From positions 96,001 to 160,000 of the IMG/VR virus record IMGVR_UViG_3300047558_000077: a stretch of DNA of 64,000 nucleotides; one strand, given 5' to 3'. Position 1 is the stretch's first letter. Each line of letters opens with the position of its first letter. Below, piece by piece: positions 18,406 through 31,995 of this stretch. The notes beneath the pieces were generated by a model. The model was given only the letters and a program-made list of their open reading frames with translations. It was not told the DNA's origin and made no database searches. The position numbers were made by a program, and so were the translations under genes. The DNA is from a virus.

Positions 18406-19629
18406 ATGTCTTATCAGTTCGTGCAAGGTCGTGGTGCGCCGCTCAAGATGTGGTGCGAAGGTGTTGAGGTCGAGGACGATGCTCGTACCCAGTTAGAGAA
18501 CATAGCGTCCTTGCCGTTCGTGTATAAGCATGTGGCGGTGATGCCGGATGTTCACTTGGGTAAGGGTGCTACGGTTGGTTCGGTTATCGCTACCAAGGGT
18601 GCGGTAGTTCCGGCGGCTGTTGGTGTTGATATCGGTTGCGGTATGATGGCAGTTCGGTTGTCTCTAAAGGCAAACGACTTGCCGGACAATCTTGCTTCGC
18701 TTCGTTCTCATATCGAGTCCGTAGTGCCGCATGGTCGCACGGACAACGGCGGTAAGAACGACAAGGGAACGTGGCTTGACCGCATTCCGAACTCGGCTTC
18801 AAATGCTTGGTTGTCTTTGTGTAGCCGTTATGATGCTATAGTGGCAAAGCACCCGAAGATTGCGTCTCATAAGACTTTTGAGTTTATGGGCACTCTCGGC
18901 ACGGGCAACCACTTTATCGAGTTGTGTCTGGACGAGGACGATTATGTGTGGGTAATGCTACACTCTGGTTCTCGTGGTGTAGGTAACAAGATCGGTCAGT
19001 ATTTCATCGAGGCTGCTCGCAAGGAGATGGAGCGATATCATATCCTGCCGTATCTGCCGGATAAGGACTTGTCCTATTTGGTAGAGCATACCACGCTATT
19101 CGATGATTATGTTGAAGCAGTATCCTGGGCACAGGAGTTTGCTGCTCTCAACCGTCAGGTGATGATGGATGCGGTGCTTGATGTTCTGCGTCAGCGTTTG
19201 CCGTCGTTTGTCGTGTCTGATGAAAAGGCTGTGAACTGCCACCACAACTATATCTCCAAGGAAAACCACTTTGGAGAAAATGTGTTTGTGACCCGTAAGG
19301 GTGCGGTTCGTGCCCGTGAAGGCGATCTTGGTATCATACCGGGTTCTATGGGCACGGGTTCGTTTATCGTTCGTGGTCTTGGTAATCAGGAGTCGTTTTG
19401 TTCGTGTTCTCATGGTGCTGGTCGTCGTATGTCCCGCAATGCGGCTCGTAAGGCTATCACGCTAGATGATCATATCAAGGCGACCGAGGGTATTGAGTGC
19501 CGTAAGGACGTAGATGTGATTGACGAATCGCCGGCTGCTTACAAGGATATCGGTGCGGTCATGGCTGCACAGGATGACCTTGTTGAGATTGTCCACCGAT
19601 TGCGTCAGGTTCTAAACGTAAAGGGATAA
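18406..19629 (+). CDS. rtcB: RtcB RNA ligase (2',3'-cyclic phosphate/5'-OH)
   Basis: MPDVHLGKG, GVDIGCGM, GTLGTGNHFIE, LHSGSRG, HHNY, RKGA, IPGSMG, SHGAGR, DESPAAYK. Confidence 0.96.
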   Translation: MSYQFVQGRGAPLKMWCEGVEVEDDARTQLENIASLPFVYKHVAVMPDVHLGKGATVGSVIATKGAVVPAAVGVDIGCGMMAVRLSLKANDLPDNLASLRSHIESVVPHGRTDNGGKNDKGTWLDRIPNSASNAWLSLCSRYDAIVAKHPKIASHKTFEFMGTLGTGNHFIELCLDEDDYVWVMLHSGSRGVGNKIGQYFIEAARKEMERYHILPYLPDKDLSYLVEHTTLFDDYVEAVSWAQEFAALNRQVMMDAVLDVLRQRLPSFVVSDEKAVNCHHNYISKENHFGENVFVTRKGAVRAREGDLGIIPGSMGTGSFIVRGLGNQESFCSCSHGAGRRMSRNAARKAITLDDHIKATEGIECRKDVDVIDESPAAYKDIGAVMAAQDDLVEIVHRLRQVLNVKG

Positions 19630-19631
19630 AA

Positions 19632-19748
19632 ATGAAACGCAAGAATGTAAACCCAGTGGCTAAGGCGTTACGTCTTGGTGTATGTAAACCTAAGGTGATT
19701 GTAGACAGGAAAACTGTATACAATCGCAAAAGGCTACCAAAACTATAG
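19632..19748 (+). CDS. 38-aa basic peptide, ArfA-like (not in ORF track)
   Basis: MKRKNVNPVAKALRLGVCKPKVIVDRKTVYNRKRLPKL*; starts 3 nt after rtcB stop. Confidence 0.5.
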   Translation: MKRKNVNPVAKALRLGVCKPKVIVDRKTVYNRKRLPKL

Positions 19749-19907
19749 ACTATAGTGACTTGGTGTTCTAATATCTCAAAAATACCCCTTCAAGGGCAAC
19801 CATGCCCTGTCCGAAAAATCGATAGGAAGCACCAGGAGACTTTTCACGGTCTTCTGGTGCTATAGTCTCTTCCAGACCTCAAAACTCTCCTGGCGTCTCC
19901 TGGAGAT

Positions 19908-20007
19908 TGTAAACAGTCTACCAACTCTATAGACTTTAGGTGCGACATCCTGTCGCACCTGTTGACATACGATTTCTCTTGCTTCTTCCGTTCCGTTGTG
20001 CTACTAT
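19908..20007 (+). promoter_or_regulatory. Composite early promoter module, copy 3
   Basis: TGTAAACA, AGTCTA-N9-TAGACT, AGGTGCGACA-TCC-TGTCGCACCT, TGTTGACA, TTGCTT-CTTCCGTTCCGTTGTGC-TACTAT. Confidence 0.8.
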
Positions 20008-20033
20008 ATCCGCATAATGTTGAAAGGAACAAA

Positions 20034-20675
20034 ATGATCAATCTCTCCAAGGCCTCTAAAATGCCTGCTAAGTCCTGGTCGCTTCAAGCGGGTTCGACCT
20101 GTCCGGGTTCTATCGATCCCGTTACCAAGCAGCCGCTTCCTGTTTGTGCGGGTTGTTATGCAAAAGATGGCATGTATAATATGCCAAACGTCAAGTCGGT
20201 TCGTGACGCTAATCGAGAAGATTGGAAGCGTGCCGAATGGGTCGATGAAATGGTTGCTTTGCTTAAAAAGCAAAAGTATTTCCGTTGGTTCGACTCGGGA
20301 GACGTTTATCATCCGGCTCTTGCTTTCAAAATCTTTCTGGTTATGCAAAAGACTCCGCATGTGAAGCATTGGCTTCCTACCAAGTCTTATAACATTCCGA
20401 AGATCCGTGCTATTCTTGATCAGATGAAAATGCTTCCGAATGCATCTGTTCGATATTCGTCTCCGTCTATTACGGGTGAATTTAATAGCGAACATGGCTC
20501 CACTGTTATCGCATATGCCGATGATGAAACGACCGCTACGGTCTGTGGTGCTTATTCTCGGAATGGCAAGTGTGGCGATTGCCGTGCTTGCTGGGATACG
20601 AATGTTAAGGTTGTCGCTTATCCCGCACATGGTCGTCGTATGATGTCCAAAGTCCGTAAAATGAAAGCAGCCTAA
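20034..20675 (+). CDS. Gp88-like Cys-rich phage protein (possible Fe-S / radical-SAM-like)
   Basis: SKMP..SWSL.A..TCPG...VCAGCYA; FRWFDSGD; HWLPT; CGDCRACW; GAAAGGA RBS. Confidence 0.7.
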   Translation: MINLSKASKMPAKSWSLQAGSTCPGSIDPVTKQPLPVCAGCYAKDGMYNMPNVKSVRDANREDWKRAEWVDEMVALLKKQKYFRWFDSGDVYHPALAFKIFLVMQKTPHVKHWLPTKSYNIPKIRAILDQMKMLPNASVRYSSPSITGEFNSEHGSTVIAYADDETTATVCGAYSRNGKCGDCRACWDTNVKVVAYPAHGRRMMSKVRKMKAA

Positions 20676-20686
20676 GGAGGATTAAT

Positions 20687-20893
20687 ATGTCACGCATATC
20701 TGATCTGATTATTCAAGCAGAGAACCTCGTTATTGAGGCTATGGGCGTTTCGGGTATTATGACCGACCGTGATGTTCTCGAATATGTAAATGACCGTATG
20801 CCTATTTACGTCGATATGCATTTTGTCGAGAGTGTCCTTGACAAGTATTTCGGCGATGACTGGTATGGCGGCGATATTCGCTCTTATAATTGA
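20687..20893 (+). CDS. Hypothetical protein
   Basis: AAGGAGG RBS; ORF track. Confidence 0.55.
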   Translation: MSRISDLIIQAENLVIEAMGVSGIMTDRDVLEYVNDRMPIYVDMHFVESVLDKYFGDDWYGGDIRSYN

Positions 20894-20902
20894 GGTGATG
20901 AA

Positions 20903-21145
20903 ATGTCGTGTAGATGGCATTCATTCTATGAAAATGGACGCCTAAGGATTTATCTTTCCCATGAATCGCTCGAAGACCTGGAAAATAGTCTTTGTCAAGG
21001 TTTCTTTGTAGCATACGGCACTTCGCCGAATGGCGGTCCGTCAGATTGTATCTGGTATGTGCCTAACACCATAATGCAACAGGAAGGAATTTTCGCTTAT
21101 GAAAACCCGAGAATATACCAACAAGATTATCGAAATGGTCGATGA
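20903..21145 (+). CDS. Hypothetical protein
   Basis: GAGGTG RBS; ORF track. Confidence 0.4.
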   Translation: MSCRWHSFYENGRLRIYLSHESLEDLENSLCQGFFVAYGTSPNGGPSDCIWYVPNTIMQQEGIFAYENPRIYQQDYRNGR

Positions 21146-21317
21146 AGGTCTAATCGATCGGGATATTCTTATTCGTGATCTTCTAAACTATATGTCCGAG
21201 TCCGATGTTGAAAACTTTTATGACCAGTATTATGGTTATGAGGACGAGGACGATGAATTGGATGATGGTCAGCCGTCGGAAATGGACGAATGGCACGACT
21301 ATGACCCAGGATGCTGA
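21099..21317 (+). CDS. Acidic hypothetical protein
   Basis: R.YTNKIIEMVDEG...YMSESDV; C-terminal DGQPSE..EWHDYDP.C motif. Confidence 0.6.
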   Translation: MKTREYTNKIIEMVDEGLIDRDILIRDLLNYMSESDVENFYDQYYGYEDEDDELDDGQPSEMDEWHDYDPGC

Positions 21318-21331
21318 CTGTAAACGAGAGA

Positions 21332-21432
21332 ATGTCAACAGTCTACCGACTTTATAGAATATGGATGCGTCACCCTGTCGCACCTGTTGACATACCTTTT
21401 CGCTTGCAATCTGTCCTTACTTGTGTTATCCT
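21332..21432 (+). promoter_or_regulatory. Composite early promoter module, copy 4
   Basis: ATGTCAACAG...CTGTTGACAT inverted repeat enclosing GTCTA-N9-TAGA and TGCGTCA-CCC-TGTCGCA; TTGCAA-17-TATCCT. Confidence 0.78.
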
Positions 21433-21462
21433 TAGTCATCAAATCGAAACAGGAGTTTTAAT

Positions 21463-22005
21463 ATGCCCCGTACCGCTCAATCTAATGGTATCAAACCCTA
21501 CCTGCGTGCCCTTGCCGTTATCAAGCTCGGTGTTCCTGTGACCCCGACCGAGATTAACGAGCATGTTGGCACCGGTGACTATGCTGCAAAGTATATCTCT
21601 TTTCTTCGCAATCGCAACGGCTTCGAGTTTACCATTCAGAAAGATGGTCGCAAGGTCGTTTCTTATACCTTGATCAAGGAACCGGCTGATGCCGAGGCCT
21701 TGCGTAATCTAATGCCAAAGGCCGCTAAGTCTAAGGCGCCTAAGGTTGCTAAGACTTCTGCTCCCAAGGTCGTGGTTGCTCCTGCTCCTAAGGCTGCTAA
21801 GACTAAAGCGCCTAAGAAGGTTGCGGCTAAGAAGTCTGTTGCCGATATCAAGGCAGCTAATCTTGCTAAACTCAAGGCAGTTGGTCAGCGTTTCAAGGCT
21901 GATCAGGTTCAGGTTCTGACCGAAGCGCCTGCGTCCACTTCGTTTAGCATTGACAACGACTGGGACTCGGTCGAAGGTCTTGACCTCAAGAACCTCATTG
22001 GATAA
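21463..22005 (+). CDS. Putative DNA-binding early protein with Ala/Lys/Pro-rich (histone H1-like) linker
   Basis: wHTH-like N-terminus; repeated KAPK/KAAK; AGGAG RBS. Confidence 0.55.
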   Translation: MPRTAQSNGIKPYLRALAVIKLGVPVTPTEINEHVGTGDYAAKYISFLRNRNGFEFTIQKDGRKVVSYTLIKEPADAEALRNLMPKAAKSKAPKVAKTSAPKVVVAPAPKAAKTKAPKKVAAKKSVADIKAANLAKLKAVGQRFKADQVQVLTEAPASTSFSIDNDWDSVEGLDLKNLIG

Positions 22006-22016
22006 GGAGTGCTAAT

Positions 22017-22271
22017 ATGGCATATGTTCGTATTGATATGGACGACATTGAAACAGAGGATTTGGTCGAGGAACTGGAGGATCGTGGTTATACTATGATT
22101 GAGCCTGGTGGTGAACATGAAAATGTAGAAACAATCAAGCGCATGGAAGATGATATCTATAATCTCTATCGTGATTATGTTCAATGGGCAGGTAATAAGT
22201 CGTCTTGTAGTTCCTTCGAGAGTGCCATAAAACGCTTCTTTGAGAAGCATACTAATAAGATTGTATCCTAA
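22017..22271 (+). CDS. Hypothetical protein
   Basis: D..TEDLVEELEDRGY motif; AAGGAG RBS. Confidence 0.55.
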   Translation: MAYVRIDMDDIETEDLVEELEDRGYTMIEPGGEHENVETIKRMEDDIYNLYRDYVQWAGNKSSCSSFESAIKRFFEKHTNKIVS

Positions 22272-22281
22272 GGAGAAACAA

Positions 22282-22644
22282 ATGGCCCGTCTCAAAATCA
22301 AATATAAAAATACTCTGGTTTTGCGTGGGTCAAATGTTTATGTGCCTGATCATAGCGTATATGTCGGTCGTGTCGTAAAGCCACGGCCGTCTTGGCTTTC
22401 CAAAGACGAATTTCTTTTCACCACTGGTGATATTGACTCGCCTGTCCGTATTCTTGATAAGAAAAACATTATTGAGGCGTGGGTGTCACATAAGAATGTT
22501 GATGATGGTGTGACACTTGTTCCTGGTGAAAAGCGACCGTATGTTGTGACTCGTGGTCCATTCGGTCGTTATTCGTGTAACTGTACCGCATATGGCTATC
22601 GGCAGCGGTGTTCTCATATTGATGGAGTGAAACATGGGTCTTGA
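22282..22644 (+). CDS. SWIM-type zinc finger protein
   Basis: YSCNCTAYGYRQRCSHI (CxC...CxH). Confidence 0.65.
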   Translation: MARLKIKYKNTLVLRGSNVYVPDHSVYVGRVVKPRPSWLSKDEFLFTTGDIDSPVRILDKKNIIEAWVSHKNVDDGVTLVPGEKRPYVVTRGPFGRYSCNCTAYGYRQRCSHIDGVKHGS

Positions 22645-23065
22645 TATGAATCTTTATGGTGAAAAGATTATTTGTGGTTCGGAGGCGGCCCCGGAGGCAG
22701 CCCTCGAAGATGGATTTCCTCTTTCATCTAAAATTCTTGACTTGGGATATTGGCGTAAACATCCCAATCTTCATGGTTACATCGTTGATACTTTCGCTGA
22801 TGGTAAAGACGAATGCCAGCGTATTTATTTGGACGAGAATGAACTCCAAAAGATCATAGAAGCATTAGAAAACGATGCTATCTATGATGAACCTGTTACG
22901 GGTTTCTTCTTCGGCAAATCTTACTTTCCTGGTGAGAAAGATGAATATAGTTCTTATGAAGAACAGAAGTCCCGTGATATAGATATCTTCACAAAGGCAC
23001 TCAATTGGATTCAGAATAATCCTTCTAAAGAGTGGCGAAATCTGTATTATCAGGCATCGTGGTGA
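22634..23065 (+). CDS. Conserved phage hypothetical protein
   Basis: MGLDM.LY...YWRKHPNLHGY...GFFFG...YYQASW. Confidence 0.65.
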   Translation: MGLDMNLYGEKIICGSEAAPEAALEDGFPLSSKILDLGYWRKHPNLHGYIVDTFADGKDECQRIYLDENELQKIIEALENDAIYDEPVTGFFFGKSYFPGEKDEYSSYEEQKSRDIDIFTKALNWIQNNPSKEWRNLYYQASW

Positions 23066-23194
23066 TAATATGTGGGACATTCACTGGATATGGAACCCTC
23101 GACATTGGGCGGTTCATAAAGTAACAAGATTCAATGGCGGCCGCCCCTATGAAAGTTATAGATTCGGTCCACTGTTTATCAGGAGATTTTGGAA

Positions 23195-23608
23195 ATGAAA
23201 ATACACAATGAAAGTTCCTGGCTAAACTGTGATGGCATCGCCATGGCAGAAAAGATGTATAATGCCAAGTATGTGTTCGAGTCCTGCTTAAAGACGAAAG
23301 ATGGTGGTTGGTGTAATATGCCAGTCGCTATCTTCTATACTGAAAAGGCCCACCCAGAAGGTTCAAACTATTTTGGATTGTATCGCACAGACTATGGTGA
23401 TCTAATGATCACAGACGGTATCTCTGCTACCGAACCATTTGATGCTTTACAGGTAGGTGAAGATATTATCTATTCTCGTTATCGTCACGATTGTCGTGAG
23501 TTTAATGGTGCGATGGTTGATGGTGGTCGAGATTACTTCAAGACCAATATGAAGGGCACTCCTGTCAAACTACAGGTTGTTGGTGATCATTTGGAGGTGG
23601 TGAAATGA
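23195..23608 (+). CDS. Conserved phage hypothetical protein
   Basis: YSRYRHD...VDGGRDY motif. Confidence 0.55.
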   Translation: MKIHNESSWLNCDGIAMAEKMYNAKYVFESCLKTKDGGWCNMPVAIFYTEKAHPEGSNYFGLYRTDYGDLMITDGISATEPFDALQVGEDIIYSRYRHDCREFNGAMVDGGRDYFKTNMKGTPVKLQVVGDHLEVVK

Positions 23609-23823
23609 AGATTAAACATTCAGTTGAATTAGACTTCGATTCTGTTAGTGAATTGATTCGTAAAAGTCTAATGTATGATTATGAAATCAATAGCAAACCT
23701 GATAAATTTGATTGTTCAGATGATGTTATTGAACCGGATCATGAGTTTCTAAGATGTTTAGAAGTTGTGATTCAGTATTATTGTAGTTGTTCTCAGTTCG
23801 AAGAATGGAAAAAGAATAGATAA
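23605..23823 (+). CDS. Hypothetical protein
   Basis: ORF track; ATGA coupling. Confidence 0.45.
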   Translation: MKIKHSVELDFDSVSELIRKSLMYDYEINSKPDKFDCSDDVIEPDHEFLRCLEVVIQYYCSCSQFEEWKKNR

Positions 23824-23906
23824 CCGATTATCATGGAGCTCCTGAATCATCGCTAATTATTTGGCTTCATGATGCCCATGATAGAAACCCTTTAAGGAGA
23901 AAGTAA

Positions 23907-24050
23907 ATGAAACTGGCATGGCTTTGCTATCATCTAATAGAGAACACTGGAAAACTGGAATACGATAAACCTGAAATTCTGTTCTATGAACCAGACCGTT
24001 ATCTTTATGATAAGGTTGTTCCAATCGTATATGCGGAGATTGTAGAATGA
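23907..24050 (+). CDS. 47-aa hypothetical protein (not in ORF track)
   Basis: AAGGAG RBS; ATGA-coupled to the ligase gene. Confidence 0.45.
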   Translation: MKLAWLCYHLIENTGKLEYDKPEILFYEPDRYLYDKVVPIVYAEIVE

Positions 24051-25177
24051 AAACCACCCAGAAACTTTACAAGATTGACTCCAACGGTAATGCTCGTGTC
24101 TGGTGGATGGAGTATGACAATACCAAGTATCGCACTCATTCAGGTATCGATGGTGGCAAGATTGTAGTTTCTGGTTGGAAGTATCCAGAGGCCAAGAATG
24201 TCGGTCGTGCTAATGAAACATCTGTGAAGGAGCAGGTTGAGTTAGAGGTTATTTCTCAACTCACTAAAAAGTCCGCACAAGGCAAGTATCACGCCAGCAA
24301 GAATACTGCCGCTAAGGGTGCCAAGTTCTATGAATGTATGCTGGCATCAAAGTATGATCCCAAGAAGCATAAGAACTTTCCCTATTACTCGCAGCCTAAA
24401 CTAGATGGCATTCGCTGTCTGGTTTCAAAGGACGGTATGCAGTCTCGCAATGGCAAGCCTATTCTTTCTTGCCCGCATATTCTTGAGGCGCTTGAACCGT
24501 TCTTTGACAAGTATCCTGATGTTGTGCTTGACGGTGAACTGTATAATCACGACCTGAAAAACGACTTTGAAAAGATTGTGTCTCTTGTTCGCAAGACTAA
24601 GCCAACCACCCACGATTATATCGAGGCATCTAAACTGGTTCAGTATCATATCTATGACTGTATGACAGACTATGATTTTGCTGGTCGTAATCAGATGATA
24701 GCGGATATATTCGAGACATTTGATTCAAAGTATAGAAAAGAGAACGATCCTATTGGTAGAGTGAATACTACTGTAGTTGAAAATGAACACGACATTGAAA
24801 CAATGCTTGGTCATTATCTTGAACAAGGTTACGAAGGTCAAATGCTTCGTGTTCCTAACTCTCTGTATGAAGGCAAGCGTTCAAAAGGACTTATCAAGCA
24901 TAAAGAGTTTGAGGATGACGAGTTTGAAATCGTCTCTATTGAAGAAGGCAAAGGTAACTGGGCAGGTGCTGCCAAGCGTGTTGAAATCCGTTTGAAAGAC
25001 GGAACGACACAGTTTTCGGGAGTGCGTGGCTCGTTTGACTTTCTGAAAGAACTGCTGTATAATGCTAATGATTATATCGGTACGGATGTTACCGTGAGAT
25101 ATCAGAACAAAACGGACGATAACAAACTCCGTTTCCCTGTGATCGTTACATTCTGGAAAGGTAAGCGTGATGTCTAA
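24047..25177 (+). CDS. gp30: ATP-dependent DNA ligase
   Basis: Motif I QPKLDGIR; LDGELY; YEGQMLR; K.KEF.D; LRFPV. Confidence 0.92.
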   Translation: MKTTQKLYKIDSNGNARVWWMEYDNTKYRTHSGIDGGKIVVSGWKYPEAKNVGRANETSVKEQVELEVISQLTKKSAQGKYHASKNTAAKGAKFYECMLASKYDPKKHKNFPYYSQPKLDGIRCLVSKDGMQSRNGKPILSCPHILEALEPFFDKYPDVVLDGELYNHDLKNDFEKIVSLVRKTKPTTHDYIEASKLVQYHIYDCMTDYDFAGRNQMIADIFETFDSKYRKENDPIGRVNTTVVENEHDIETMLGHYLEQGYEGQMLRVPNSLYEGKRSKGLIKHKEFEDDEFEIVSIEEGKGNWAGAAKRVEIRLKDGTTQFSGVRGSFDFLKELLYNANDYIGTDVTVRYQNKTDDNKLRFPVIVTFWKGKRDV

Positions 25178-25373
25178 GGACATTGTTTACTACAAACTGG
25201 TAAAAGAAACCATTCCTCATAATCCTAATGCTTTTGTAACTGCTGCTGTTTGGTCGTGTGTCCTTTGTGACGAAACTATTAGCGGTCACAGTGGACCTGG
25301 TTCTGGTGAGATTTGTGTGCAATGTGCCGTTGATATTCGCTCAAATAAACTAAAATATAAGCGTGACCTATGA
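25170..25373 (+). CDS. Small CxxC-CxxC zinc-binding protein
   Basis: CVLC...CVQC. Confidence 0.45.
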   Translation: MSKDIVYYKLVKETIPHNPNAFVTAAVWSCVLCDETISGHSGPGSGEICVQCAVDIRSNKLKYKRDL

Positions 25374-25591
25374 CCGAGATTAGAAAGATTGACATTGAAC
25401 TGGATGAACGTGTGGAGACTGGTCCTCTCCAGTTTGGTGATGACTGGCCCGGCTTATTTATTCGTGGTGATAATGCCGCTTACTATGCCATGGTGCTTCG
25501 TTACCATCTTGATGGTGGTCGTGATGATATCTTTGGTAAAATGGCACTAGAAAGACTCTATAAAGACCTATCAGGGTGTATAGTGAAATGA
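25370..25591 (+). CDS. Conserved phage hypothetical protein
   Basis: RVETGPLQFGDDWPGLFIRGDNA motif. Confidence 0.6.
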   Translation: MTEIRKIDIELDERVETGPLQFGDDWPGLFIRGDNAAYYAMVLRYHLDGGRDDIFGKMALERLYKDLSGCIVK

Positions 25592-25752
25592 TTACCGACT
25601 ATATGAGACAGATAGCATATAACGAAGGATATAAAGCATACATCGATAACTTTGATTGTAGGGATAATCCATATGAAGGTAATAGTGATGAGTTATATTA
25701 TATGTGGGATGATGGTTGGTGGGATGCTTTTTACGAGGATGAAGCACGATGA
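25588..25752 (+). CDS. 54-aa Rmf/CrpP-fold-like protein (not in ORF track)
   Basis: AYNEGYKA...NPY...W.DGW.DA matches Rmf pattern; ATGA-coupled on both sides. Confidence 0.55.
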   Translation: MITDYMRQIAYNEGYKAYIDNFDCRDNPYEGNSDELYYMWDDGWWDAFYEDEAR

Positions 25753-26291
25753 ACATTTTCTATATCCATACTGACCCTAAAATGTGTGCCGAGTGGGCAG
25801 TGGATAGCCATTGTGTAAAAATGATTTTAGAGGCGAGCCAGTTGCTGTCTACCGCACATCGTTTGCTCGACGGTGTAGAGTATACCGATAAGACTAAGAC
25901 TGGTCGCAATGTAAAGCGTTGGCGTTTGCCTGATTCCAGAGAAACTGTATTATACTCCGCAACTCATGTGTCGCACCCATCGGCTGTGTGGGCTCGGGAG
26001 AATGCCCGCAACTATGGATGGCTATGGTGTTATCTAGATGAACATTGTAAAGAATACACCTATCGTTATGGTAAGATTCACAAGGTTGAAGAAAGTGGTC
26101 TAAAAGGCACACTTGCTCTTACACCGAATAACATTCCTAATAAAGACTTTACACAACCTCCAAGTGCGATGGATACTAAATACATCATATCAGAAGATGC
26201 GGTAAAGAACTATCGCAACTACTACAAGGTTGGCAAAGCGCATCTTCACAAGTGGCGCAATCGACAGCCACCAGCATGGATTATGGAGTGA
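25749..26291 (+). CDS. Pyrimidine-dimer DNA glycosylase/endonuclease V-like protein
   Basis: MNIF...D.HCVKMILEA.QLLSTAH...HPSAVW...YRYGKIH. Confidence 0.72.
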   Translation: MNIFYIHTDPKMCAEWAVDSHCVKMILEASQLLSTAHRLLDGVEYTDKTKTGRNVKRWRLPDSRETVLYSATHVSHPSAVWARENARNYGWLWCYLDEHCKEYTYRYGKIHKVEESGLKGTLALTPNNIPNKDFTQPPSAMDTKYIISEDAVKNYRNYYKVGKAHLHKWRNRQPPAWIME

Positions 26292-26293
26292 CA

Positions 26294-26485
26294 ATGCCAA
26301 CATATAGTTTTCACAACAAAGAAACAGGAGAAGAGTTTGACATTTTCATGTCAATCTCCGAATTAGACAAGTATCTAGAAGACCATCCTGAGCTTGAAAA
26401 GCTATTGTCTGCACCTCATTTTTTAGGCGCTCAAATGAATGGCGGTTTGCTAAATAACAGAACATATGATCCAAAGGGTAAGTGA
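26294..26485 (+). CDS. FmdB-like small protein, paralogue 1
   Basis: MPTYSF.NKETGEEF..FMSISE.D.YL..HP. Confidence 0.6.
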   Translation: MPTYSFHNKETGEEFDIFMSISELDKYLEDHPELEKLLSAPHFLGAQMNGGLLNNRTYDPKGK

Positions 26486-26749
26486 ATGCCATATTATACG
26501 TTTCGCAATAAAAAGACTAATGAAGAAATGACTGTCCAGATGACTATGGCAGAACATGATACATATCTAAATGACAAGCCTGATTGGGAACAGGTTATTC
26601 GTGCTGTCAACTTTGCTGATCCTGTGACCATAGGCGTCACCAAACCTCCGTCCGATTTTCAGAAGTATGTGCTTGGTCGTGTCAAAGAAAAGATGCCAGG
26701 CGCTACTGCTATTGCTAACAAGCGTTGGGACATTCCCAAGGAGATTTAG
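26486..26749 (+). CDS. FmdB-like small protein, paralogue 2
   Basis: MPYYTF.NKKTNEE...MT.AE.D.YL..KP. Confidence 0.6.
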   Translation: MPYYTFRNKKTNEEMTVQMTMAEHDTYLNDKPDWEQVIRAVNFADPVTIGVTKPPSDFQKYVLGRVKEKMPGATAIANKRWDIPKEI

Positions 26750-26780
26750 CCTGTCAGAAGATCAACCTTCCAGAAAGTTT

Positions 26781-26817
26781 AGAGGTCGTGCCCGTAAAAA
26801 GGCATCGACCTCTTTTT
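26781..26817 (+). terminator. Rho-independent terminator
   Basis: AGAGGTCG-TGCC...GGCA-T-CGACCTCT followed by T-run. Confidence 0.7.
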
Positions 26818-26858
26818 GTTATGATGATGTGACTAACAATAACAAAAAAGGTCAATAT

Positions 26859-27575
26859 ATGTCACGTAAGAATAGAAGAAATAGCAAGCAACAAAATCAA
26901 AATCAAAACTTTGAGGAGAACAATCATTTTGCTTTGCGTCATATCAATCCACTAACAGTAAACCAGCAAAGAGTGTGGGACGCATACAATAATGAATCTA
27001 ATCTCATGTTGCATGGCTATGCCGGTACCGGTAAAACCTTTCTATCAATGTATCTTGCACTAAAGGAGGTCCTAACCAGCGACATATATAAGAGGGTCGT
27101 TATCATCCGCTCAGTTGTTCCATCCAGAGACATGGGTTTTCTACCAGGAACAGAGAAACAAAAAGCGGAAGTATATGAACAACCCTATCAAGAAATCTGT
27201 GACAATCTATTTGGTCGTGGAGATGGATGGCGCATATTGAAACTAAAGAGACTTGTTGAGTTTACGACAACATCGTTTCTACGTGGCACTACGTTCAACG
27301 ATTCTATTATCATTGTTGATGAGTGCAACAATATGAACTTTCAAGAGATTGATACAGTTATGACTCGTATTGGTAATAACTCTCGTATCATTTTCTGTGG
27401 AGACTATCGCCAGGCAGATTTACATAAACCACATGATAAAACAGGTATCAAAGAGTTGATGGCAGTTACTCGCCGTATGCCATCATTTGAGCATATTGAA
27501 TTTGGTATTGAGGACATTGTCCGCTCTGGTGTGGTAAAAGAGTATATCATCCAGAAAACTGAAATGGGACTGTGA
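26859..27575 (+). CDS. phoH: PhoH-like ATPase
   Basis: GYAGTGKT Walker A; MGFLPG; FLRGTTF; IIVDECNN; TRIG; GDYRQAD; DIVRSG. Confidence 0.93.
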   Translation: MSRKNRRNSKQQNQNQNFEENNHFALRHINPLTVNQQRVWDAYNNESNLMLHGYAGTGKTFLSMYLALKEVLTSDIYKRVVIIRSVVPSRDMGFLPGTEKQKAEVYEQPYQEICDNLFGRGDGWRILKLKRLVEFTTTSFLRGTTFNDSIIIVDECNNMNFQEIDTVMTRIGNNSRIIFCGDYRQADLHKPHDKTGIKELMAVTRRMPSFEHIEFGIEDIVRSGVVKEYIIQKTEMGL

Positions 27576-27584
27576 CTAAATAGC

Positions 27585-27609
27585 AGGTGGGAGTGCAATG
27601 CTCCCACCT
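27585..27609 (+). terminator. Stem-loop after phoH
   Basis: AGGTGGGAG-7 nt-CTCCCACCT perfect 9-bp stem. Confidence 0.55.
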
Positions 27610-27615
27610 ATTCAC

Positions 27616-27644
27616 TTGACAATTCAGTAAAGGTGATATATAAT
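27616..27644 (+). promoter_or_regulatory. Consensus sigma70 promoter
   Basis: TTGACA-17 bp-TATAAT. Confidence 0.8.
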
Positions 27645-27655
27645 GAACACATACC

Positions 27656-28333
27656 ATGAAAACTTTTAGACATTTATACAACGATCCGATTCTATGTGAA
27701 CTGAAAAGGGAAGAATATAATGGCAAGCGATACTACATATCTCCAACAGGCAAGAGACTTCCCTCCGTTACTACCTTCTTATCCCATTTTAAAGGGGACG
27801 CCATCCTCAAGTGGCGGCAAAAAGTGGGGGAAGAAGAAGCGAATAAAATATCAGCAAGAGCAAGCCGAAGAGGTACAAAATTTCATTCTCTTATGGAATC
27901 TTATCTCGGAAATCAGGAAGGATTCCTAACTCACAAAGATGTTATGCCAGATATGCGACATTCTTTCAGATTGATGCAGCCTCTGGTTGACAGAATAGAC
28001 AATATACATTATATTGAGACTATGCTTTATAGCGATGCATTAGGACTCGCTGGACAGGTAGATTGTATAGCAGAGTTCGATGGTGTTCCTTCCATTATAG
28101 ATTTCAAAACATCTCTAAAACTGAAAAAAGAGGAATGGATTCTAAACTACTTTGAACAATGCACCTGCTATTCTTTGATGTATGAGGAAATGACAGGAGT
28201 GAAGTGCAAGCAGATTGTTGTATTGATAGCAGTTGATGGCGAAGACCCGCAATGTTTTGTCAAGCAACGTAAGGACTACATTCCAGAACTAGCCAATAAG
28301 ATCAAAACATTTAGACAGGAGTTTGTGTTATGA
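27656..28333 (+). CDS. PD-(D/E)xK exonuclease (Cas4/lambda-exo-like)
   Basis: PSVTT; RGT.FH; AGQVDCIA...IIDFKTS; Q...Y. Confidence 0.85.
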   Translation: MKTFRHLYNDPILCELKREEYNGKRYYISPTGKRLPSVTTFLSHFKGDAILKWRQKVGEEEANKISARASRRGTKFHSLMESYLGNQEGFLTHKDVMPDMRHSFRLMQPLVDRIDNIHYIETMLYSDALGLAGQVDCIAEFDGVPSIIDFKTSLKLKKEEWILNYFEQCTCYSLMYEEMTGVKCKQIVVLIAVDGEDPQCFVKQRKDYIPELANKIKTFRQEFVL

Positions 28334-28449
28334 GAAAAGCATATCTAGCAATAGCATTGGTGTTTCTTAGTTTGGGTTTGTCTGGTTGTGTTTTGGCGAC
28401 CGTCGGTAAGTGCGTTGTATGGGATGCAACTAGCCGTCCCTGTAACTGA
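28330..28449 (+). CDS. 39-aa micro-lipoprotein (not in ORF track)
   Basis: MRKAYLAIALVFLSLGLSG|CVLATVGKCVVWDATSRPCN*; canonical lipobox LSGC. Confidence 0.65.
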   Translation: MRKAYLAIALVFLSLGLSGCVLATVGKCVVWDATSRPCN

Positions 28450-28488
28450 ACCAATTATAGAAGATTTTGAAAATCAGATACCAGAAGA

Positions 28489-29955
28489 ATGATTATCACT
28501 CGTAACTGGATACGTGACGACATACTCATATACACCGAGAAAGCCACTGGCGGTCTTCGTGTGTATGGTAAGAAAGACATATGCGAGTTTATCAATTATT
28601 GGAAACTGAAACTACTATCACATAATGCAAAGCCTGGTGATAAATTAGGATTTACGTTTGAGAACACCGAGATTCATTCTTATGCTCTTATGTTTGCAGC
28701 ATTTGAACTTGGGTTACGTGTTGTGGTTTTACATCGACCAAGCACAGAGAAGGAATGTTTGGCACCAAAAAGCAATGCTCATTTACCTCTAGACTTCTAT
28801 GTCTATCTCACATCATACCTAAATCGTTCAACTACTGTCACGGGTGTCAATCATTATCGAAAGCATTCTAAAGTTTGCATTAGCTATGGTCCTATGGAAT
28901 GGACCGAGTTTAGTGAAGACTTTAGATCAAATGAAGAAACACCTATAACAGTCAAACCCGACGATGTTGCTTTTTGTTGTAACAGTAGCGGTACAACCGG
29001 AGATCCTAAACTCATATCATACACACACGAGTTTCTTTACAACCTATGCACACATAACTGGCAAGACTTAGGTTATAAAGACGATGATACCATTGTGCAT
29101 CTGTCTTCCCTAAATCACGGTGGAGTCATAACTTTACTATTACCGGCACTAAGAACTTGCAAGACACACTTCTTTTATAACTACATCTTTGCAGCATCAT
29201 ATGATCGTCTTCTATCATTCATAGATGTTTGTCTAGATTATAATGTGTCAAAAATATTCTTTGCAAACGGTGGGGAGCTGAATACGCTCATTGATCACTT
29301 AATAGAAACCGATAATAAACTATCCAATGTTAGTGCCTACATTCTTTCGTTTATCAGTCCTAGATGGTCAGATACTATTCGTGATCAAAGACTAAAGGAG
29401 ATTGTTAGCGTTTTTGGTTGTAGTGAGATATGTGGTCCTGTCTTTATGCCTAGACTAGACAATAGCAATGTTGATGGCTTTGATCCAAAGTTACTAGGCA
29501 AGCCAATGACAGGCTTCTATGAAACAAAGATCATTAATAACAGAATACACACGAAACTAAAAGACGGAGGAGAGTTTGTCTTTGATGATGTTGTAGAAGA
29601 TAGAGTAGAAGGCGCTTATTTCATATCAAAGAATAGACTACAGAAGATCAATGATGTGGATATCAATCCACTGGACATTATAGAGATAGTAGAAAGATAT
29701 GTATCACGGTATGAGTTTGAGTTATATGTGGACGAAATCTATAACGAGATATACATCATAACTTCCAATGCCAATCTTGATAGAGGGAAGATAAGACAAG
29801 ACATATCTGCATTCTATCTGGACAAGATAACTCTAACCGATATCATATACGAAAAGGAACTATATGATACTCGGATCACTCACAAAGCGGAAAGAGATAA
29901 ACTATCACACATAGTTGAAAGATTCCGCTTGACATTTCAGAATAACTCTGTATAA
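28489..29955 (+). CDS. Adenylate-forming (ANL/AMP-binding) enzyme
   Basis: P-loop NSSGTTGDPK; L.HGG; FGCSE; A10-like K..R..L near C-terminus. Confidence 0.72.
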   Translation: MIITRNWIRDDILIYTEKATGGLRVYGKKDICEFINYWKLKLLSHNAKPGDKLGFTFENTEIHSYALMFAAFELGLRVVVLHRPSTEKECLAPKSNAHLPLDFYVYLTSYLNRSTTVTGVNHYRKHSKVCISYGPMEWTEFSEDFRSNEETPITVKPDDVAFCCNSSGTTGDPKLISYTHEFLYNLCTHNWQDLGYKDDDTIVHLSSLNHGGVITLLLPALRTCKTHFFYNYIFAASYDRLLSFIDVCLDYNVSKIFFANGGELNTLIDHLIETDNKLSNVSAYILSFISPRWSDTIRDQRLKEIVSVFGCSEICGPVFMPRLDNSNVDGFDPKLLGKPMTGFYETKIINNRIHTKLKDGGEFVFDDVVEDRVEGAYFISKNRLQKINDVDINPLDIIEIVERYVSRYEFELYVDEIYNEIYIITSNANLDRGKIRQDISAFYLDKITLTDIIYEKELYDTRITHKAERDKLSHIVERFRLTFQNNSV

Positions 29956-29961
29956 TAAATA
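29929..29961 (+). promoter_or_regulatory. tmRNA promoter (sigma70 plus overlapping late-like box)
   Basis: TTGACA-16 bp-TATAAT, overlapping AATAAATA. Confidence 0.7.
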
Positions 29962-30252
29962 CTATGCCGAGGTCGTTGAGAGGAACGGCATAGACGTTTC
30001 GGACGGGAGTTCGACTCTCCCCACCTCCACCATAGGTACACATTTTGAGGTCTTGGTCGTTACCAGCATGGCAAAAACGGCGACAATGTGTATCTTTGAT
30101 GGGGGTGTAACGGGTATCGACGGGCGTAGTAAGGGTTCAAGGAGACCAAAGGCAAATTGCAGGTGCAGCAAACGACAATGTACCATTTGATTACGCTCTA
30201 GCAGCATAATCATTGGGGTGGCGACTTCCCTAGAAACAGAAAAGTCGCATTT
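29962..30252 (+). ncRNA. ssrA: Circularly permuted two-piece tmRNA; tag (A)ANDNVPFDYALAA
   Basis: T-arm GGGAG-TTCGACT-CTCCC and CACCTCC-ACCA (30022-30032) precede the 5' acceptor strand GGGGGTG (30101-30107), giving a 7-bp stem with G3:U; tag frame 30165-30209 ends in ALAA-TAA; outer boundaries approximate. Confidence 0.93.
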
Positions 30253-30267
30253 TCAAAAAGGATCTAT

Positions 30268-30495
30268 GTGATGACACCGGATGATATTCAAAAGTTTAGT
30301 ATGGAGATCGAGGAACTGGTCTATATGAAGGACATTCCTTATATTGATGCTGTTGTGGAATACTGTGAGATGACCGGGTTTGAAATAGAAACTGCGGCCA
30401 AATTAGTCTCCGGCGTTCTCAAATCTAAAATCAAACTCGAAGCAGAAAACCTCCACTACCTCAAAAAGTCAAACACCTCACAACTTCCTCTCTAA
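30268..30495 (+). CDS. gp33: Late promoter transcription co-activator
   Basis: FS.EIE..V....YIDAVV.YCE..E.E..AKL...LK.KI..EA..L.YL. Confidence 0.85.
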   Translation: MMTPDDIQKFSMEIEELVYMKDIPYIDAVVEYCEMTGFEIETAAKLVSGVLKSKIKLEAENLHYLKKSNTSQLPL

Positions 30496-30511
30496 AAGGA
30501 GAACCTATATT

Positions 30512-31360
30512 ATGTCTGAACCGCATACGATTACTAAATCGGTTTTTGACCGTGAAGAAACAACACACATCGCTAATGTCAAAGCAAAGTTGGAATCAGC
30601 ACTATCTGGTGCTGGTGTATTTGACTGTATGCAACTCAAAGTCAGCGATGATGGAGATCGTGAAGCGATAACGCATAAACTTCAACCCGATCAGCGACAC
30701 AATATTGTGATTGCCGGCGGTGTAATGGCTTCTCTTATCAGCAATGAGCATGTCAATGATATTGATGTGTTTATACTCAATTCCAAAGAATCTTTGTTCA
30801 ATTCTCTTATTCGCTTTAAAAGAGGTAAATGGAATGTTCGTTACCAACTGAATGAGGATGAAAACTATTACAATCCTCATATCATCGCTACAGCAACAAA
30901 CAAAGAATCAAAAGTTCAGTATATTCTAACGGACTTCACTAATCGACAAGATATACTAAAGGACTTTGACTTTCTACATTGTACCTGTTCGTATCACAAC
31001 GATCAGTTGTTTATCAGTCGGGAGACATATGATGCTATCGTCAAAAAGCATTTGATTTGTCAGAACAAAAAGAAGAAGCCTAAAAAATGGCGTATAGATA
31101 AGTTTCTCGGTCGTGGTTGGTCGGATCACACTAATCCAGACTATAAACTTATCACCATTTTTGACAAAGCAATTGAAAGGTCAATGGCCCAAAAGAGTGC
31201 GGCAATGCTTGAAAAATATGAGTGGCCAACCACCAGCATGGGCGCTGAATACAATGAAAAGGCATGGAAAGAACTATTCGAGAAAGATAAAGAAAAGTGG
31301 AGAGTGAAGGAAGAATCTAGTCTTCCTGACTATTGGAAAAACATTGTAAGAGAATTATGA
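30512..31360 (+). CDS. Pol-beta superfamily nucleotidyltransferase (CCA/poly(A) polymerase head-like)
   Basis: IAGG....L......NDIDVF; VQYI; DFDF.HC. Confidence 0.6.
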   Translation: MSEPHTITKSVFDREETTHIANVKAKLESALSGAGVFDCMQLKVSDDGDREAITHKLQPDQRHNIVIAGGVMASLISNEHVNDIDVFILNSKESLFNSLIRFKRGKWNVRYQLNEDENYYNPHIIATATNKESKVQYILTDFTNRQDILKDFDFLHCTCSYHNDQLFISRETYDAIVKKHLICQNKKKKPKKWRIDKFLGRGWSDHTNPDYKLITIFDKAIERSMAQKSAAMLEKYEWPTTSMGAEYNEKAWKELFEKDKEKWRVKEESSLPDYWKNIVREL

Positions 31361-31995
31361 AACACTTTTCTGGATATGGAGCATATCTGTTATTCTTGGC
31401 CTTGAGGACACATTTCACCAAGGCCAAGTATGACTTCTTTGAAATGAACGGCAAACTCCGTGCTAACAAAGAGTCATATGAAAAACGCAGAGATAAAATG
31501 TTCTTTGTGAAGTTGGCTAAGACATACAATACAGAAGAACTAAAATACTTCTTTGTAGCCAACTTCCTAGACGACAGACATTACATAACCGACATGTTAT
31601 CGGAGGAAGCACACGGAGCCTATTATGAATTTGAGAAACGAAGACAATCGCTATCCTATGTCTTCAAGAATGATATTGAAAAGTTATTTGAGAATGGGTG
31701 CCATTCTGCTTTCAAGTCTGATGATGGTGATTATCCTTTGCTTGTCGGCATGGTTCTCAGCCGAGATGTCTCTTTGGATTCTGCGGTTATTCTGAATGAG
31801 TTTGTTCCTTATGTGTCAAAATTTGATAAATATATGGACGACGATTGTATATGGCAAAAAGTATCAAGTAAGATCAAAAAGTATAGACCATTTCTAAAGT
31901 ATGAAAAAGATAAGATGAAGATCATACTGAAAGGTGTAATACATGAACAAAGAGAAAAGACAGAAGCGTTTTCAGCAAAAACAGCGACACATTGA
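31357..31995 (+). CDS. gp59: Helicase loader
   Basis: AY..FLALRTHF...YDFF..NGK......Y.KRRD..FF.KLA; position between gp33 and gp32. Confidence 0.85.
   Translation: MKHFSGYGAYLLFLALRTHFTKAKYDFFEMNGKLRANKESYEKRRDKMFFVKLAKTYNTEELKYFFVANFLDDRHYITDMLSEEAHGAYYEFEKRRQSLSYVFKNDIEKLFENGCHSAFKSDDGDYPLLVGMVLSRDVSLDSAVILNEFVPYVSKFDKYMDDDCIWQKVSSKIKKYRPFLKYEKDKMKIILKGVIHEQREKTEAFSAKTATH

Follow-up and report, generated by a model that had tools for sequence, protein, structure and literature searches.

Genes for RNA repair and ribosome rescue in a freshwater T4-like phage are probably separate helpers of translation

The early region of a freshwater T4-like myophage carries five genes related to RNA repair and to the state of the ribosome that, in our view, probably act in parallel and not as one system. 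They are found in a stretch of 64,000 nucleotides (the window hereafter), positions 96001–160000 of the 172,364-bp IMG/VR record IMGVR_UViG_3300047558_000077, rated complete by CheckV. The five parts are the gene of the RNA ligase RtcB, a gene for a short basic peptide of the Pfam family DUF7230 that we relate to ArfA, a gene for a small protein with the fold of RMF, a circularly permuted (two-piece) transfer-messenger RNA (tmRNA) and a nucleotidyltransferase (NTase) with the head of class-II CCA-adding enzymes. All of them lie on the + strand within 18406–31360 and each has support from sequence or fold, in agreement with a preliminary description of this DNA. The same description placed them outside a single operon, and this is borne out by about 25 open reading frames (ORFs) between the first and the last part and by two sigma-70-type promoters with 12/12 consensus positions, one at 27616–27644 (+), just upstream of a PDDEXK nuclease gene, and the other at the tmRNA. 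By this layout the five genes are separate units, presumably transcribed separately, among early genes. We are moderately confident that several such genes, inherited independently, each act on the host translation apparatus and are gained or lost singly, since their presence in related phages varies from one gene to another.

Distribution of the five parts among related phages

Part of the evidence comes from the genomes of this T4-like lineage that are at least 94% complete, four including this one (G055 and G053 are complete, G054 is at 94%). G055 has all five parts spaced as here, while in G053 and G054 two of them, RtcB and the RMF-fold gene, are missing and three remain; the missing two are thus each present in two of the four genomes. 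In G053 and G054, as in this virus, some 10 kb separate the ArfA-like gene from the tmRNA downstream of it, and the presence of the ArfA-like gene there without rtcB indicates that it is older than the adjacent rtcB insertion. Two close relatives (G002 and G003) have the entire arrangement in common with this virus, by common descent. At the other end, the Methylophilales phage Melnitz (Kyanoviridae) has only the tmRNA. Among 19 larger records bearing the NTase, RtcB was found in one, the ArfA-like gene in five and the RMF-fold gene in two.

The tmRNA was present in 16 of these 19 records, and a link between it and the NTase was considered and rejected, as it vanished in a control anchored on gp33, the late-transcription coactivator gene located between the two. 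This count covered 42 gp33-anchored loci in which both flanks were long enough, searched with ARAGORN and, for representative ARAGORN-negative loci, with Infernal. The tmRNA was detected in 30/30 loci with the NTase and in 11/12 without it (41/42 overall), indicating that there is no specific tie between them and that, in this lineage, the tmRNA is close to being a core feature.

Such independent gain and loss argues for parallel helpers. Two points weigh against this view. Three parts (ArfA-like gene, tmRNA and NTase) are found together in 4/4 of the genomes at least 94% complete, so that some functional dependence among them is possible; besides, what is known here comes from sequence and models, and the functions of the phage genes are predicted. 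The preliminary description had suggested, tentatively, that the five act as one system. In its full form this would be a coordinated counter-defence kit kept together by selection, in which RtcB would religate RNA cut by anticodon nucleases or ribotoxins of the host, the NTase would restore 3' ends, the tmRNA and the ArfA-like peptide would clear stalled ribosomes and the RMF-fold protein would reset the ribosome state. We regard this as very improbable: G055 and this genome do hold the five parts at the same spacing, RtcB and a permuted tmRNA are 1.3–4.8 kb apart in unrelated alphaproteobacterial siphophages (Lacusarx, Erythrobacter XM05 and Mesorhizobium Cp1R7A-A1 among them) and RNA-repair and rescue sets have been described for large phages (PMC7824862), but the co-occurrence check that had been set beforehand gave the independent distribution described above, with separate units, two genomes lacking RtcB and the RMF-fold gene, a single part in Melnitz and a tmRNA indifferent to the NTase. 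The caution to be taken is that genes sharing a theme in the early region of a phage need not form a system. Phage tmRNA, RtcB and ArfA are already known and the idea of a toolkit is itself not new; what is new is the link between DUF7230 and ArfA, together with two unusual forms, an RMF fold that is acidic and a CCA-type transferase with a head only.

Table 1. Features of the region, with positions in the window
Feature	Position	Strand	Support or remark
RtcB 3'-phosphate/5'-OH RNA ligase, 407 aa	18406..19629	+	PF01139, motifs
DUF7230 basic peptide, 38 aa, ArfA-related, without KGKGS	19632..19748	+	PF23876
Acidic RMF-fold protein, 54 aa	25588..25752	+	PF04957 below cut-off, predicted fold
Sigma-70-type promoter TTGACA-16-TATAAT	29929..29956	+	12/12 consensus positions
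Circularly permuted (two-piece) tmRNA	29940..30300	+	ARAGORN, RF04321, RF01849
tmRNA 3' acceptor half, encoded CCA	~29994-30032	+	
tmRNA 5' half	~30101-30125	+	downstream of acceptor half
tmRNA tag frame, AANDNVPFDYALAA then TAA stop	30165-30209	+	ARAGORN
gp33 late-transcription coactivator	30271..30495	+	PF16805, 72 bits; backbone marker, outside toolkit
Pol-beta-type NTase, 282 aa, class-II CCA-adding/poly(A) polymerase head, low-confidence helical C-terminus	30512..31360	+	PHROGs, model
gp59 helicase loader	31333..31995	+	PF08993 and PF08994 matches; backbone marker, outside toolkit

The nucleotidyltransferase and the tmRNA

The NTase matched phrog_4400 (E 2e-17) and phrog_1614, “nucleotidyltransferase” (E 3e-7), and its homologues are labelled PF26128; no paper mentioning any of these three families was found. 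Across 60 homologues D83 and D85 never vary, and G69 and G70 hardly do. The AF2 model (pLDDT 82.8) was closest to E. coli poly(A) polymerase (3aql, Z 12.3), followed by A- and CCA-adding enzymes at Z 9.0–11.7 (3wfo at 11.7 and 1miv at 10.5 among them), the stand-alone CCA head domain 2la3 (Z 8.9) and FAM46B (Z 8.4), and Foldseek agreed (5hc9, E 8.6e-5). The matched stretch covers only residues 11–208, i.e., the head and part of the neck, the remainder being low-confidence helix, indicating that the body and tail that hold the tRNA are absent. The protein is thus modelled as a class-II CCA-adding/poly(A) head-domain fold with a GG...DxD motif. This upholds the CCA/poly(A)-polymerase-like assignment made earlier as far as the head is concerned, and no farther than part of the neck. 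With class-II CCA-adding enzymes, poly(A) polymerase I (PF01743) and 2la3 it has in common the head fold and the GG...DxD motif A, and it differs from the full-length enzymes in its family label, in the lack of body and tail and in the absence of any PF01743 match in the genome at E values up to 10. Its location is remarkably fixed: in 57–65 of 70 loci it is found between gp33 and gp59, genes that are separated by 0–18 nt where the NTase is absent and by 650–1700 nt where it is present. Judging by these gaps it is an optional insert.

Our best guess is that this putative enzyme adds nucleotides to the 3' ends of RNA. However, the 3' CCA is encoded in all the phage tRNA genes (24/24, in an array at genome C1:75119-83779, outside the window) and in the tmRNA. 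This weighs against our reading, as a CCA adder is not needed for the maturation of these RNAs and any CCA work would be repair. An alternative is that the NTase is unconnected with the ends of tRNA or tmRNA and has a DNA or nucleotide role in replication or transcription, or is an anti-defence enzyme. Its constant position between gp33 and gp59, the lack of domains for holding a tRNA, the encoded CCA ends, the equal frequency of the tmRNA where the NTase is missing and the presence of FAM46 and Pol X among the lower structural matches would all suit it. Still, we find it somewhat unlikely, because the nine best structural matches (Z 8.4–12.3) are all class-II CCA-adding, A-adding or poly(A) enzymes, the stand-alone CCA head and FAM46B, with the next one at Z 5.4, and because motif A can be aligned to that of the Arabidopsis CCA enzyme.

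The tmRNA is a firm assignment, as had been called from the letters alone: ARAGORN labels it “Permuted”, with a tag that ends in ALAA, and it scores above the cut-offs of two Rfam families (RF04321, 95 bits vs. 47; RF01849, 56.2 vs. 50). Its promoter is located within the 3' end of the preceding ORF and stops 15 nt short of the Rfam match. We found no match to SmpB (PF01668) in the phage genome, so this protein would have to be provided by the host, which is usual for phage tmRNAs. With its strong promoter, and using the SmpB and the alanyl-tRNA synthetase of the host, the phage tmRNA would release ribosomes that have stalled on broken mRNAs and mark the peptides for proteolysis. In Melnitz a two-piece ssrA of alphaproteobacterial type is located directly upstream of the coactivator gene gp33, behind an early promoter (PMC9004378). 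The gene described here is of the same permuted alphaproteobacterial type, in the same slot and with an early-type promoter, as in the ssrA of Melnitz and the pelagimyophages, and the differences are an AMP-binding enzyme gene upstream, the NTase inserted between gp33 and gp59, and the freshwater habitat. A glutamine riboswitch like that of Melnitz was not found by Rfam in the window.

The tmRNA might alternatively serve mainly to tag proteins for degradation, with recycling of amino acids or removal of host proteins, or to compete with the host tmRNA, plain rescue not being its main role. Tagging-type roles have been proposed for the tmRNAs of Melnitz (PMC9004378) and Lacusarx (PMC5648845), every tag variant of the lineage retains ALAA as its degron end and the early-type consensus promoter fits as well. 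We consider it rather unlikely as the main role; tagging and rescue are a single reaction, and the sequence cannot separate the two.

Two observations concern the surroundings and the variants of this gene. The ORF directly upstream (28489-29955, +), whose 3' end holds the tmRNA promoter, codes for an AMP-binding enzyme of 488 aa (adenylate-forming, ANL-type), unusual in a phage, with homologues of 41–51% identity at the same position in many relatives. In two relatives of the G055 type (L323:2097-2749 and L333:2085-2747) the permuted tmRNA match extends over ca. 650 nt, compared with the usual ca. 240 nt; their tmRNA genes seem to contain a large additional segment, and were missed by ARAGORN.

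RtcB and the ArfA-related peptide

RtcB is a firm assignment too, as the first description held (PF01139, 428 bits vs. a cut-off of 27, model positions 1–426 covered), and its metal- and GMP-binding motifs (MPDVH, DIGCG, GNHF, HSGSRG, SHGAGR) align with those of the solved Thermus and Pyrococcus chains. The RtcB2 type, paired with PrfH, was ruled out (TIGR03073, 129.5 vs. a cut-off of 271.8), and no release-factor (RF-1) domain was found in the phage genome. The GC content of the gene is 51%, compared to 41% for the window, and its nearest isolate homologues (64–71% amino-acid identity) are those of large alphaproteobacterial phages, namely Lacusarx, XM05 and Cp1R7A-A1. Both features suggest horizontal acquisition, and rtcB looks like a recent, higher-GC insertion beside the ArfA-like gene. 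The accepted role of RtcB is tRNA repair; consistent with this, tRNA genes were found within 3 kb of rtcB at 15 of the 60 phage loci with a more distant RtcB. The enzyme would reseal tRNA or rRNA cut to 2',3'-cyclic-phosphate and 5'-OH ends. In Lacusarx a “translation takeover” region with tRNA genes, tmRNA and rtcB has been described (PMC5648845), and many tRNA genes and a permuted tmRNA are found close to rtcB in the three phages just named. Unlike in these siphophages, the backbone here is that of a T4-like myophage, and the distance from rtcB is 10 kb to the tmRNA and 30 kb to the tRNA array.

The ORF that starts 3 nt past the rtcB stop codon, and has its own stop codon, codes for a peptide with 13 Lys or Arg among 38 residues (pI 11.5). 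The changes in its codons among relatives, 11 synonymous vs. only 1 non-synonymous, indicate that it is a real coding gene under purifying selection. It was found 4–685 nt downstream of rtcB in 20/20 IMG/VR contigs with a close RtcB (88–92% identity), in a short (37–38 aa) and a long (58–66 aa) form. An RtcB–ArfA operon as a general arrangement was dropped, as the peptide was found within 3 kb in 0/60 RtcB loci of 60–72% identity and in 0/4 isolate phages.

The peptide belongs to DUF7230 (PF23876, 31.2 bits vs. a cut-off of 27; 29.8 bits in a six-frame search of the genome), a family mentioned in no paper that we found, and the look-up in the ESM Atlas gave nameless clusters and one DUF7230 cluster with no taxa attached. 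Its relationship to ArfA is indicated by sequences that bridge both families. Of the 136 relatives retrieved by a profile search, two passed the ArfA cut-off, and both have the N-terminal NPVAKALR frame in common with the peptide, the main difference being a GKG insertion that completes KGKGSY. The Pfam models of ArfA and DUF7230 match each other below threshold in both directions, and hhalign against E. coli ArfA gave a probability of 74% (E 2.9e-5) with a wide alignment holding the two ArfA-positive rows. The peptide resembles E. coli ArfA (PF03889) in being short and basic and in having the frame N-x-[VI]-x-x-[AL]-L ... [FC]-[RK]-Q-[RK]-[VI] ... Y-x-RK; unlike it, it falls in DUF7230, is 38 aa long, ends at its own stop codon and lacks three residues (GKG). 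We therefore read DUF7230, on the basis of these bridging sequences and profile comparisons, as a shortened branch of the ArfA family. A phage-borne ArfA is not without precedent, since one of the ordinary kind is known in the pelagiphage HTVC027P (gp30; PMC12753301).

The family is also present in cellular genomes. A pattern scan followed by a hidden Markov model filter detected it in metagenome-assembled genomes (MAGs) of four Pelagibacterales, one Hyphomicrobiales, one other alphaproteobacterium and one Saccharibacteria, on contigs of 56–918 kb in five of them. In one Pelagibacterales genome the gene is found among housekeeping genes (LptC, LptB-like ABC ATPase, PrpD), and in such a context it looks like a cellular gene that was captured by the phage. 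The chromosomal genes of the Pelagibacterales and Hyphomicrobiales MAGs are those of loci L187, L142, L199, L205 and L185; at L187:3825-3935 its neighbors are a staphylococcal-nuclease-like gene and a DUF2798 gene, one on each side, and LptC/LptB-like genes are close by.

We put forward tentatively, at somewhat less than even odds, that DUF7230 is a KGKGS-less branch of ArfA that acts as an RF2-recruiting back-up rescue factor in SAR11-like and other Alphaproteobacteria, and that freshwater T4-like phages took it up and use it alongside the tmRNA that they encode. The peptide, probably taken from a SAR11-like alphaproteobacterial host, would most likely probe the empty mRNA channel with its basic tail and recruit the RF2 of the host, opening a second rescue route; this mechanism we infer, homology being what the comparisons point to. 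Several points weigh against this reading of the peptide. The link with ArfA is built on short, low-complexity basic peptides; hhalign with the phage clade alone gave only 39% probability (E 3e-4); and the profile of the peptide against all PDB sequences did retrieve ArfA at the top, but with an E value of 0.49. In addition, the KGKGS segment that precedes the Y-x-RK tail is missing (a three-residue gap compared with the ArfA-positive relatives P0072 and P0083), so that the mode of binding to the ribosome may differ. Nor was there any match to PF03889 in the six-frame search of the genome with E values up to 10, or when the peptide and five relatives were searched. The ArfA-like call made at first glance thus has probable homology behind it by way of DUF7230, without the PF03889 match and the KGKGS segment of a standard ArfA.

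These same weaknesses (no PF03889 match, no KGKGS, poor statistics of the clade-only profile) could be taken as an indication that the peptide is not a rescue factor at all, but a small basic peptide with affinity for RNA or ribosomes, by which host ribosomes are blocked or reprogrammed, or that its likeness to ArfA is a convergence of composition. We deem this improbable. Proteins that pass the ArfA cut-off have the same NPVAKALR...V.K...Y.RK frame and differ mainly by the three-residue GKG insertion, the two Pfam models cross-match, and in SAR11-like genomes DUF7230 is a single-copy chromosomal gene amid housekeeping genes, as a cellular rescue factor would be. If the capture of an ArfA-type rescue factor is what happened, the virus has both known kinds of non-stop rescue, and translation could continue while the mRNA and tRNA of the host are being cut. 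A named but uncharacterised Pfam family would then be readable as a shortened ArfA present in SAR11-like chromosomes and their likely phages, and it provides a candidate, open to testing, for ribosome rescue independent of tmRNA in bacteria that are very abundant in fresh water and in the sea.

The RMF-fold protein, neighboring genes and lineage

The ORF of the small protein was listed as 25576-25752, but its homologues place the start at the ATG in 25588. The score against PF04957 (RMF) was 23.9 bits (E 4.3e-5), under the cut-off of 27.9, and a profile search against PDB by sequence matched no chain. The evidence for the fold comes from the predicted model (pLDDT 88). Its top three Foldseek matches were all RMF chains (TM 0.70/0.75), and the top VIA match was RMF on the ribosome (4v8g_AV, 51/53 residues, rmsd 1.8 Å) with a Z of 7.1, a modest value for a two-helix protein. 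As modelled, then, the RMF fold stands for this 54-aa protein. What does not stand from the earlier Rmf-like call is the charge that defines RMF, which is basic and binds 16S rRNA. The protein described here is acidic (pI 4.05, 14 Asp or Glu vs. 4 Lys or Arg) and by charge count has no basic surface for 16S rRNA binding. Compared with RMF (PF04957; 4v8g, 6h4n, 9iot, 2jrm), the two-helix fold and a motif of the type GY..A...C..NPY...W..GWW are common, while the net charge is reversed, the Pfam score is under the cut-off and ribosome binding is a feature of RMF. Its acidity makes RMF-like binding of the rRNA, and like-for-like silencing of ribosomes, unlikely; it is probably not a 16S rRNA binder in the style of RMF. 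The flanking genes code for an ATP-dependent DNA ligase (24047-25177; PF01068 and OB domain) and a phrog_624 “DNA binding protein” (25749-26291), setting the gene amid DNA-metabolism and not translation genes.

The virus, a T4-like myophage with a genome of 172 kb, has distant kin in Melnitz, the pelagimyophages and the cyanomyophages and no close relative in culture, and the DNA described here belongs to its early/replication region. The backbone order PhoH, PDDEXK nuclease, tmRNA, gp33, gp59 is the same as in Melnitz, yet gp59 has an identity of only ca. 37–40% to the Melnitz and cyanomyophage proteins, and megablast of the region against isolate phages gave no match. No RNA sequencing runs containing the phage were found. 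The same DNA was found in metagenomes from freshwater, river and aquaculture (ca. 10 studies).

Two minor features were noticed between the main genes. The gap that follows the DUF7230 ORF (19749-19995) contains repeated CTATAG-containing motifs and inverted repeats, and then a promoter-like TTGACA…TACTAT. At 28330-28446 (+), overlapping the stop codon of the PDDEXK gene, there is an ORF of 38 aa with a signal peptide and a lipobox (…LSLGLSGC…), by its sequence a small phage lipoprotein; in G002 its positions 28330-28424 are 96% identical, with the neighboring genes at 70–88%.

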